Source: a virus (lineage: Duplodnaviria; Heunggongvirae; Uroviricota; Caudoviricetes). From it: a DNA stretch of 15,711 nucleotides. Made by a program: the position numbers. Shown here piece by piece: positions 12,001 through 15,000 of this stretch. The stretch is taken from IMG/VR virus record IMGVR_UViG_2700989509_000007. One strand, 5' to 3'. Each line of letters starts with the position of its first letter. Position 1 is the first letter of the stretch.

Positions 12001-15000
12001 CCTGCGCCTCCTCATTGCCAGCCATTAATTGCCAGTCACGCTGATAACGCTCGATGAGTTTTTTCTTGTCAGTTTCTGTTGACGCATAATCGCTGAAGTC
12101 TTTCAGGATTTGTTCGCAGTCAACCGATGGAGATTTCTGGTTGGTATTTTCTGGTGATGGTTTGTTATCTGATGCTGGGATTGCCCATCCCGGCAGCGAT
12201 GGAGGAAGCCAGTAAAATCCTGTTCCATCCTTCAGTTTTGCCCTGTGCCACCCCTGCTTTTTATCGAGAGATGTTTGTGCGAAACCTTCCTCAAGGTTAT
12301 ACAGATACCGACCGATTCCCCACTGAACGGCAGCACGCTTCATTGCACCGGAACGACCACCTTTTACGGCTTCTACCTGCGTGTTTTCAGCAGCATCCCA
12401 TTTGGTTACCCATTCGGAATCAATCCTGATTGATATGCCGCATTCAACGCCTCCGTTGTTGGGAATATCGCGGTATTCATTGCGCCATCCTGCTTTGCCG
12501 CAAACATCGTCCAGGCGTTTCATGATTGCCCTGTTCGTGACATAAGCCAGCACCATAGCCCACACCTTGCCATCGCGTGTTTTACCGCTTTGCTGTATTC
12601 GCCATTCGATATCTTCAGGGCAGAATGGCTCATCGAATTTGTTCAAATCCATAATTCACCTCAGAATGGACACGGCCCAAGGAAATAACGCTGATTTAAT
12701 ACTTCAGTCTTTGCCGCATTTAAAAATACGCGAACACCTTCACGATCTCCCTTCTGGCGATACATTAACGCCTGCTGCGTGTACATGCGTCTCTGTAACT
12801 TGCTCTCCTTCACTGTGGTTGCAAGTGACATGAATATCTCCTTCGTTACCGATTAAATCTTTCATCTGACGAATGAATTCTTCGTCTGACCAGTTATCTG
12901 TAAAACTCATTTCCTGCGATACCACGGAAGGTTGATAGCTGATTTCATCGCTTTATTTGCTTCAAGCCACATTTTGGAATCACCAATAAATCGGGCTATT
13001 ACTGCTTTGTTCTGTGCAGCACGAAGCATCTGGTGATTAATGGCTATTTCATTGCGCATAACGCCTCCAGTTGTTTCTTTGCTGCTCTGATTAATTGTTT
13101 AACTCGGCGTGATAATTCAGATTCGTGCGGGTAGAAAGCGGACATGACGCCGCTACCCGCGAGCTGAAAGTGCATCATGGGTAACTCCTTATATTTGATT
13201 GCATAACGAAAACGCCTCGAGTGAAGCGTTATTGGTATGCGGTAAAGCCGCGCTTAGGCGGCTGATGTTTCTTCTTTCAGGCTTTCGAGATATTTACGTG
13301 GGTCGTCGTAACATTGGCATTCGCTGTACCAATCCACCCAGCGATCAGTAAGCCCCATCTCTGATAAATCTTCATCGGTAAGGCTCTCATCCCACATCTC
13401 AAGGCCGTTAGCATTGCAGTAATCAGGCTTGATGTTGTTGTCATACTGAAAGGCGTCATAATCAGCCAGTGCGTCCATCAGACGAACACCCTCTTCAACA
13501 CTTGCCACTTCTACAATGAACGGCTTCATAGGTACTTGCGGGATATGCCAGACACGTAATTTCATATATCCTCCGTCAAAAAAATTGCCCTCACACTGGA
13601 GGGCAAAGAAGATTTCCAATAATCAGAACAAGTCGGCTCCTGTTTAGTTACGAGCGACATTGCTCCGTGTATTCACTCGTTGGAATGAATACACAGTGCT
13701 TATTCGTACTAATAAAATACCCAATTTTCTGTTTCTTGGTTGTGTCCAAAGTTATATTCAATATCTGGTGTTGATGTATCAATATTCTTCATACCATCAA
13801 CAAGAGTTGATACAACAGCCAAATCTTGTTTGATTCTCATTAAATGGTATTTCTTCCGGCGCAATAAACTTTCAATGGCAAGTTTCTTCGTTGGGAATGC
13901 AAAAGATCTTTCTGCATTTTTTGCTACTTTCTTAATTGCATATCTATTTCTCCTTTGTTTCCATTCCTGTAACCACTGATTTGGTGCTGGTTTAAAATTA
14001 ACAATCCAATGCGCAGGAACCAACCATGCATAATGCTCTGTCTGATGAAAAGCTATATATTGAAGTGCGAATATTTTTATCCCATCTTCTTCAACTGTCG
14101 CCTGGAATCTCCAGAAAACAGGCATTCCATCATGTTCAGTTTCTGATTCAGGAAAAGGTACGCTCCATGATTTTGTCATATCTCACCTCAAATAAGTGGT
14201 TTGCTGCCTAATTTCATTTTCTGGCGACCGACACAGGTCACACCCATTTCACTGCGTGGCTTGCTGTAGTAAATACGGTTCTGTTTACGCTCGACTTCTT
14301 CTGCCTTCTTGCAGCGAAGGCTTCCGAGTGATATTGCTTTTTCAGAAAGGCTTAAACGCTTTCTTGGGGCCTCCTGAACAGGTTCCTCACTGTCTGTGCC
14401 GAAGATAGAATCAATGATGTTACAGATAGCATCACGCTCAATAGCAAGCTTTCTGCGCCGCTCATGACGGCGAGTTTTGGCATTTCCTGCAAATGTTGAT
14501 TTTCCGTACACGATTACCGTCATGATGTTTTCCTCATGTGAAATGGCTTTGGTGGTGATGCGCCAGATGCTGATCTTCTGGTTGCTGTCGTTGCAGCTGC
14601 AATTCACATCACCGCCAAACCCATCTCGTTTGGTATCTGTTTGCGCTTTGTCAGCGCCCCATCGAAGTTAAAGAGCCTGCCAATCTGTTCCGTTTGACTT
14701 CCAGCTTCCTGCTGATGGCTTAAAGATAACCTAGGTTATAGGTGTGGTCAATAACTTAATTTATAATTCATGGTAAATAAGTTATAAGTTATGGATAACA
14801 AAGGTATTTTATTTTTGTAAATGTTGAGGATGAAGGTAAGCGTACAGCGAGGGCCGTATTGACGGGGATGTGTTATTCAGCTGGCAGTGCTATGCGCCAC
14901 GGAAGCAGTTCGCTGACCCGGTTGACCGGCCAGTCTGCTATGACGCCAAGCACATGGCGAAGGTAGCTTTCTGGATCCACGTCATTCAGTTTGCACGTCC

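Follow-up and report, generated by a model that had tools for sequence, protein, structure and literature searches.

The closest described relative of the gene studied here is gene 17 of the Salmonella phage P22. The RefSeq record of P22 annotates gene 17 with the comment "allows growth on phage Fels2 lysogen". A passage of one paper, citing Semerjian et al. 1989, describes gp17 as being needed against the Fels-2 exclusion system (PMC6486243), and a second paper concurs that gp17 counteracts exclusion by Fels-2 (PMC9409062). In a third, the passage concerned, citing Susskind & Botstein 1978, has gp17 releasing exclusion by Fels-1, not Fels-2 (PMC4837284). The direction of the effect is uniform across these sources, gp17 defeats exclusion, and the database label "superinfection exclusion protein" is misleading for that reason. 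Based on this literature and the annotation, P22 gp17 is a counter-exclusion factor. In this report we describe the gp17 gene in 15,711 nucleotides of DNA from a virus of the Caudoviricetes (IMG/VR record IMGVR_UViG_2700989509_000007; "the window" refers to the whole of this stretch), which belongs to an E. coli Stx-phage-like prophage, and consider what its product might do.

The Window Gene Belongs to the gp17 Family

Comparisons with protein family databases left very little doubt that the window gene is a member of the gp17 family. Its product matched Pfam PF17420 ("GP17, superinfection exclusion gene product 17") with an E-value of 7.3e-56 and 186.8 bits against a cut-off of 25, with residues 1-98 covering positions 1-98 of the 98 in the profile, and this was its only Pfam match. 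A match of similar quality was obtained to PHROG 1510 (phrog_1510; E-value 5.7e-58), and none was obtained in NCBIfam or PADLOC. The protein is 88% identical to P22 gp17 across 103/103 residues; the two are of the same length and differ by 12 substitutions, most of which are in the acidic C-terminal half. All eight residues that are invariant in the family (L33, Y36, D37, F39, Q40, K46, D48, and Y49) are kept. In addition, genes 100% identical to that of the window were found in the Stx1a phage Stx1a_EH2115 and in E. coli 2013C-3342. The gene is therefore already known: its family is annotated, and entries almost identical to it are in the databases.

The surroundings of the gene matched those of P22 gene 17. 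In both phages the gene is in the PL operon between the N-proximal genes and cIII-kil, just upstream of the latter, and has the same GGAGG-4 nt-ATG start. In each, a hairpin and T-run precede the gene and another hairpin spans the stop codon; the RefSeq record of P22 has a terminator annotated as overlapping the end of gene 17. The two loci differ in the upstream neighbor (orf156 in the window versus orf78/orf87 in P22) and in the recombination genes (Rad52-SSB-Abc2 versus Erf-Abc1-Abc2). They also differ in host, P22 being a Salmonella phage, and the Fels-2 phenotype is known for the P22 copy only. Together, these comparisons indicated that the window gp17 is the E. coli prophage orthologue of P22 gene 17.

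The reading frame, which runs on the minus strand from an ATG at 13565-13563 to a TAA at 13256-13254, is exactly that given in the initial annotation of the window, a 103-residue protein rich in Asp and Glu. The window gene and P22 gene 17 have a ratio of nonsynonymous to synonymous substitution rates (dN/dS) of 0.125, and 25 of their 39 nucleotide differences are at third codon positions, which indicates that this is a real gene under purifying selection, not a chance open reading frame (ORF). A longer reading of 121 residues from a TTG at 13619 was considered and rejected, as it crosses the terminator hairpin, has no visible ribosome-binding site, and P22 starts at the same ATG as the shorter frame.

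Composition, Predicted Structure and Spread of gp17

The acidity of the protein was confirmed. Asp and Glu account for 23 of the 103 residues (22.3%) against nine Lys and Arg, giving a net charge of -14 and an isoelectric point (pI) of 4.14, the most acidic values among the 12 scored ORFs of its operon. P22 gp17 is likewise acidic (net charge -17, pI 4.05). Fifteen of the 23 acidic residues fall in residues 56-103. A hydropathy scan detected no hydrophobic or transmembrane segment (Kyte-Doolittle maximum of 1.02 over a 19-residue span; grand average of hydropathy -0.59), and the protein is predicted to be soluble.

Analyses of relatives indicated that acidity is a trait of the family and not a chance property of this member, since the pI was below 5 in 94-97% of 268 relatives, whose median net charge was -12 to -14. 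Column statistics divided the protein into two parts. Conservation is strong in residues 1-55 and extends to the polar residues Q10, E25, Y36, D37, Q40, K46, D48, Y49, and N51. Residues 56-94 are variable in length and sequence, yet 40-80% of the residues at most positions are Asp or Glu, with W76 and W79 as anchors.

The AlphaFold2 (AF2) model of gp17 was confident (pLDDT 92.5) and had an alpha/beta fold with the order beta-beta-alpha-beta-alpha-beta-alpha. No significant match to the model was found among the solved structures of the Protein Data Bank, and no Gam entry was among the matches listed. When the sequences of solved structures were searched with gp17 by itself, and again with a profile built from 106 sequences, all matches were of chance quality (E-values of at least 0.15). 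In BFVD, the fold search returned gp17's own family and nothing else.

The family is large. When 1.8 billion cluster representatives (clusters at 50% identity) were searched with a profile, 1166 clusters were identified at an E-value of 1e-3 or lower. Most of the clusters listed had lengths of about 100 residues and a minority had extensions; these were heterogeneous, with no recurrent domain seen in the long members. Relatives were present in 325 phage-genome records, and the virulent phages among them included N4 (gp18), Kuttervirus/Ackermannviridae (SFP10), and Bacillus SBSphiC. Among 5426 complete E. coli genomes, 135 carried the gene, with the name "superinfection exclusion protein" in the entries listed. 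A scan of one genome per species identified relatives with 43-80% identity in Proteobacteria, Firmicutes, Actinobacteria, Planctomycetes, Spirochaetes, and candidate-phyla bacteria, and also relatives in some archaeal-labelled bins. The neighbors of diverse relatives were typical prophage early genes, encoding CI/S24 repressors, RecT/ERF/Rad52 recombinases, N, SSB, DnaB, and methylases; in 32 diverse loci there was no conserved neighbor or fusion partner beyond these generic early genes.

A Probable Counter-Defence Role and a Candidate Target in Fels-2

We consider that gp17 probably has a role in counter-defence. The explanation that we favor, and hold to be somewhat better than even, is that it is an early protein that neutralizes an abortive-infection or exclusion function borne by a prophage. 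Under this explanation, gp17 would be an early lytic product, translated from PL transcripts that N has antiterminated, a timing that we infer, and would neutralize the abortive-infection or exclusion function of a resident prophage, as P22 gp17 does that of Fels-2. The outcome would be that the phage cycle could be completed in polylysogenic hosts. The protein would presumably act by direct stoichiometric binding, as an inhibitor or a decoy. The conserved N-terminal core (residues 1-55) may provide a scaffold or recognition surface, and the variable, acidic C-terminal half (residues 56-94) a decoy or blocking surface that blocks or imitates a nucleic-acid-binding surface.

Two features of the family support this explanation. 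Homologues occur in the virulent phages N4, SFP10, and SBSphiC, and such phages would have no use for an exclusion gene expressed from a prophage, which favors counter-defence. In addition, the acidity is family-wide and concentrated in the variable C-terminal half. The location of the gene is also of interest, as recombination loci near cIII have been described as hotspots of anti-defence genes and of defence triggers (preprint 10.64898/2026.07.10.737580).

The leading candidate for a target would be the nuclease-like abortive-infection protein AbiU/AIPR. It is proposed because STM2723.1, whose product is of this type, is the only recognizable defence gene in Fels-2; four other Fels-2 proteins of unknown function had no defence match in PADLOC. 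The STM2723.1 protein matched AbiU in PADLOC (E-value 2.7e-112), the Pfam family AIPR (E-value 9e-43), and phrog_1841, "Abi alpha-like". Its gene directly follows the portal gene Q (Table 1), a position that we take to correspond to the "old" hotspot of P2. The lactococcal AbiU is described as a single-protein, nuclease-like abortive-infection system (PMC13064643, a 2026 review). We regard the assignment of AbiU/AIPR as the target of gp17 as tentative and less likely than not. A broader proposal, which is also rather doubtful at present, is that the gp17 family as a whole may be a dedicated, cross-phylum inhibitor of AbiU/AIPR nucleases, combining a conserved core with a nucleic-acid-like acidic half, or else may hide a universal signal of infection from sensors of this type.

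A small vibriophage protein, Surt, is reported to counter AbiU (bioRxiv 10.1101/2024.06.14.598830). Both Surt and gp17 are small phage proteins, and AbiU is the proposed target of gp17. Judged by motifs alone, the two are probably unrelated, because the signature motifs of gp17 (IKPDY, IPQVP and similar) are absent from the supplements of the Surt paper. The OLD anti-defence proteins Oad1 and Oad2 were also considered as identities for gp17 and were rejected, as Oad2 is EaE-like and Oad1 derives from a vibriophage, and both belong to other families.

Several points weigh against gp17 being an inhibitor of this kind. A literature search found no experiment on the window gp17 and no mechanism or target for any member of the family, and the secondary sources conflict as to whether Fels-1 or Fels-2 is the excluding prophage. 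The link between AbiU and gp17 is one of guilt by association only. The Fels-2 AIPR allele was found, at the DNA level, in 7/5426 complete E. coli genomes versus 135/5426 for gp17. Lastly, the N-terminal half of gp17, including its polar residues, has kept 45-55% identity between Enterobacteria and relatives as distant as Firmicutes, Actinobacteria, and candidate-phyla bacteria. Conservation of this degree would, in our view, be unexpected if gp17 inhibited a single immune protein that evolves rapidly, and hints at a more universal ligand or partner.

Alternative Roles for gp17

The alternative that fares best takes this hint further, and proposes that gp17 binds a universal, conserved partner and thereby masks the trigger of abortive-infection systems rather than inhibiting their effector. 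Candidate partners are nucleic-acid-binding proteins of the host, small nucleotide ligands, and intermediates of replication or recombination made by the phage, and the loss of gp17 would be visible only in hosts that have a sensor such as that of Fels-2. Such a role would fit the cross-phylum conservation (43-56%) and the near-invariance of the polar residues listed above better than inhibition of a single immune protein does. It is also consistent with gp17 recurring in unrelated prophages beside single-strand-annealing recombinases of three families (RecT in three cases, ERF in two, Rad52 in one) and beside replication genes, and with the report that proteins of recombination loci set off defence systems and that the same loci are rich in counter-measures (10.64898/2026.07.10.737580). 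However, there is neither a fixed neighbor nor a fusion partner from which a specific ligand could be deduced, no similarity in fold was found to Protein Data Bank structures, among which deposited nucleotide sponges would appear, and the idea is one of inference alone. We view binding of a universal partner as unlikely.

The initial annotation had suggested that gp17 might be a DNA mimic or nuclease inhibitor. Such a protein would block either RecBCD in the manner of Gam or Abc, or restriction enzymes in the manner of Ocr or ArdA. The general idea of a counter-defence function is supported by the orthology with P22 gene 17, but the more specific role is improbable. In charge and size gp17 does resemble such proteins, being small, predicted to be soluble and strongly negative, and its net charge of -14 is comparable to that of lambda Gam (-8) and approaches that of T7 Ocr (-28). 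It is encoded in an early operon beside recombination genes, as are lambda Gam and P22 Abc1 and Abc2, all of which are small early PL-operon proteins. The absence of a match in fold would be compatible with mimicry as a physical mechanism, as DNA mimics share no fold.

Against such a role, the position that gp17 was thought to fill is already occupied. The window encodes a full-length homologue of the anti-RecBCD protein Abc2, which had been overlooked and is predicted to be the operon's own RecBCD modulator. P22 pairs gene 17 with abc1 and abc2, and the identical gp17 gene of E. coli 2013C-3342 adjoins gam-bet-exo. Thus Gam, Abc1, and Abc2 coexist with gp17 rather than being replaced by it, and gp17 behaves as a module that can be paired with any of the three recombination/anti-RecBCD cassettes, those of the window, P22, and E. 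coli 2013C-3342. Profile comparisons with hhalign gave probabilities of 0.2% for gp17 against lambda Gam, 0.5% or lower against P22 Abc1, 0.5% against the Abc2 of the window, and 0.1% against T7 Ocr, and neither a Gam family nor PF11043, to which Abc2 belongs, was among the Pfam matches of gp17. Gam is mildly acidic and, unlike gp17, Abc1 and Abc2 are basic (pI 10.3 and 9.0).

Comparison of the confident AF2 model with Gam-, Abc- and Ocr-like folds, the check that had been proposed, was no more favorable to a nuclease inhibitor, as the fold searches of solved structures found no similarity to known DNA mimics, Ocr included. Like gp17, T7 Ocr is a small and soluble early phage protein of high acidity that is linked to counter-defence; it is more acidic (29% Asp and Glu, net charge -28) and has no sequence or structural relation to it. 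The sequence and structure comparisons gave no evidence for an action of gp17 on restriction enzymes. In addition, the reported phenotype of gene 17 is prophage-dependent, and the literature found mentions no RecBCD or restriction phenotype. With the slot filled and no similarity in profile or fold, the assignment of gp17 as the phage's RecBCD inhibitor is not supported.

The lambda protein Ea10 is of interest in this regard. Its gene (positions 2537-2905, minus strand, of the lambda sequence compared, L004) is in the slot of gp17, between ral and cIII and just upstream of the latter, and it encodes 122 residues with a net charge of -14 and a pI of 4.28. No homology to gp17 was detectable (hhalign probability 0.3%). 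Ea10 may be a functional analogue of gp17 that has been selected at the same position.

Taking the database name literally, with gp17 as a prophage product that shuts out other phages, is the least credible alternative. RefSeq, PHROGs, and Pfam all carry the "superinfection exclusion" label, but the sources from which the name derives describe an activity in the other direction, an escape from the exclusion of another prophage. Moreover, gp17 is small, acidic, apparently soluble and without a membrane segment, in contrast to SieA, which is described as an inner-membrane protein (PMC7380047), a consensus scan showed a terminator-like hairpin and no promoter-like site directly 5' of the gene, and homologues occur in virulent phages, which are never lysogenic.

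As a sequence feature gp17 is ordinary, being one of the many members of an annotated family, and a growth phenotype has been published for the prototype of that family, P22 gene 17. Its mechanism matters for the approximately 1166 clusters of the family, which span many phyla and include virulent phages that are therapeutic candidates (Kuttervirus and N4-like phages). The misleading exclusion label is attached to gp17 in the 135 of 5426 E. coli RefSeq genomes and in many of the 325 phage records. If gp17 does act on AbiU or by masking a signal, a genetic observation of the 1970s-80s would gain a mechanism and a target, and a family-wide misannotation would be corrected. A pairing of gp17 with AbiU, if true, would provide a target for the former and a natural inhibitor for the latter, and is directly testable.

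Organization and Predicted Expression of the PL Operon

The gp17 gene is on the same strand as cIII, kil, and the Rad52-like and SSB genes and just upstream of cIII (Table 1), as the initial annotation had it. That these genes share an operon needs qualification. Terminator-like hairpins flank gp17 on both sides, and its co-transcription with the neighboring genes therefore probably requires antitermination by N; N-dependent read-through of both hairpins would be expected. The upstream hairpin had a folded energy of -18.2 kcal/mol (z -2.2). For the downstream hairpins the value was -26.4 kcal/mol (z -4.05), and none of 200 shuffled sequences was as stable.

A PL-like promoter site was identified at 14751-14723, upstream of N, with operator-like repeats nearby (repeats and promoter together at about 14720-14790) and a boxA-like sequence, GCTCTTTAA, downstream of the promoter. 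A consensus scan of the coding strand between 13566 and 13710 found no sigma-70-like site, although such a scan cannot prove that a promoter is absent. The lack of a promoter-like site directly 5' of the gene, together with the hairpins on both sides, fits N-dependent, lytic expression of gp17. We would expect the gene to be silent in a lysogen and to be expressed in the delayed-early period under N antitermination.

Table 1. Coordinates of gp17, its flanking elements and neighboring genes in the window, and of the candidate target gene in Fels-2
Feature	Positions	Strand	Evidence or remarks
N antiterminator gene	14188-14607	-	PF25694 N_peptide, E-value 6e-26
orf156, basic ORF of 156 residues between N and gp17	13709-14179	-	pI 9.1; phrog_1636
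Non-coding leader, about 55 nt, conserved with P22	13607-13665	-	GAGCAATRTCGCTCGTAAC...GTTCTGRTTATTGGA; three-way DNA alignment
Terminator-like hairpin 5' of the gp17 ribosome-binding site	13578-13606	-	8-bp stem with 5 G-C pairs, followed by T7; consensus scan
Shine-Dalgarno sequence GGAGG, 4 nt 5' of the gp17 ATG	13570-13574	-	Read from the sequence; identical arrangement in P22
gp17-family coding sequence (103 residues), stop codon included	13254-13565	-	Translation, Pfam PF17420, phrog_1510, identity to P22 gp17, dN/dS
Two hairpins 3' of gp17	13211-13263	-	13246-13263 overlaps the stop codon; 13230-13211 is terminator-like, with tail TTTTCGTT
cIII	13044-13178	-	
kil	12907-13059	-	
Rad52-like gene (Rad52/22-family annealing protein)	11945-12652	-	
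SSB	11438-11944	-	
Abc2 anti-RecBCD homologue	11128-11424	-	PF11043 (Anti-RecBCD_p2), E-value 3.9e-44, full length; phrog_656
STM2723.1 of Fels-2, AbiU/AIPR (565 residues)	22639-24336 of NC_010463 (L005)	-	Directly after portal gene Q

The leader and the hairpin with its T-run (13578-13665) have a counterpart in P22 (positions 3385-3490 of the sequence compared, L001). The sequences of the hairpin stems differ between the two phages, which suggests that the structure has been kept while the sequence changed. No Rfam family matched this region. The region may act in regulation, as an N-sensitive terminator or in some other way.

The basic protein encoded by orf156 had no match in Pfam or NCBIfam and no credible match in PADLOC. 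In E. coli 2013C-3342, the same gene (L041, positions 3887-4357) also precedes the identical gp17 gene, and based on this shared gene order the two may travel together. At the other end of the operon, the Abc2 homologue is downstream of the Rad52-like and SSB genes, and no Abc1 homologue was seen in the window.

Two small overlapping ORFs (12661-12925, minus strand) are situated between kil and the Rad52-like gene, at the place of arf in P22. Their products of 61 and 56 residues belong to phrog_2123 and phrog_1723, respectively, both of which are labelled "recombinase" in PHROGs, and they may be recombination cofactors. A second acidic ORF (10423-10974, minus strand) encodes 183 residues with a net charge of -13 and a pI of 4.86 and had no family match. 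The names listed for the E. coli matches to this part of the operon included "cell envelope biogenesis protein TolA" and "coiled-coil domain-containing protein", names that are not mapped to the ORF.

Other Features of the Window

A fragment of an IS66-family transposase (14836-15697, minus strand; PF03050 positions 66-283 and the IS66 C-terminal element) ends just upstream of the operator-like repeats and the PL-like promoter. The insertion sequence occupies the place expected for the repressor gene, and the immunity region of the prophage may therefore be disrupted. A match to the Rfam family sRNA-Xcc1 (RF02221; 71 bits, gathering score 53) was found at 9901-9989 on the minus strand, between an AntA-like antirepressor gene (9243-9860) and the remainder of the early-left region.

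The left part of the window has a different character. A tRNA gene (4304-4375, minus strand) is located between two tyrosine-integrase genes, at 2973-4175 on the minus strand and 4496-5740 on the plus strand. To the left of the integrase genes are two genes resembling those of type III effectors, both on the plus strand, for an OspG/NleH-like kinase (1057-1947) and a Peptidase_M91/NleD-like protein (2178-2876). This arrangement (1057-5740) suggests a tandem pair of integrative elements that share a single tRNA site, in a genome of the enterohemorrhagic or enteropathogenic E. coli (EHEC/EPEC) type.

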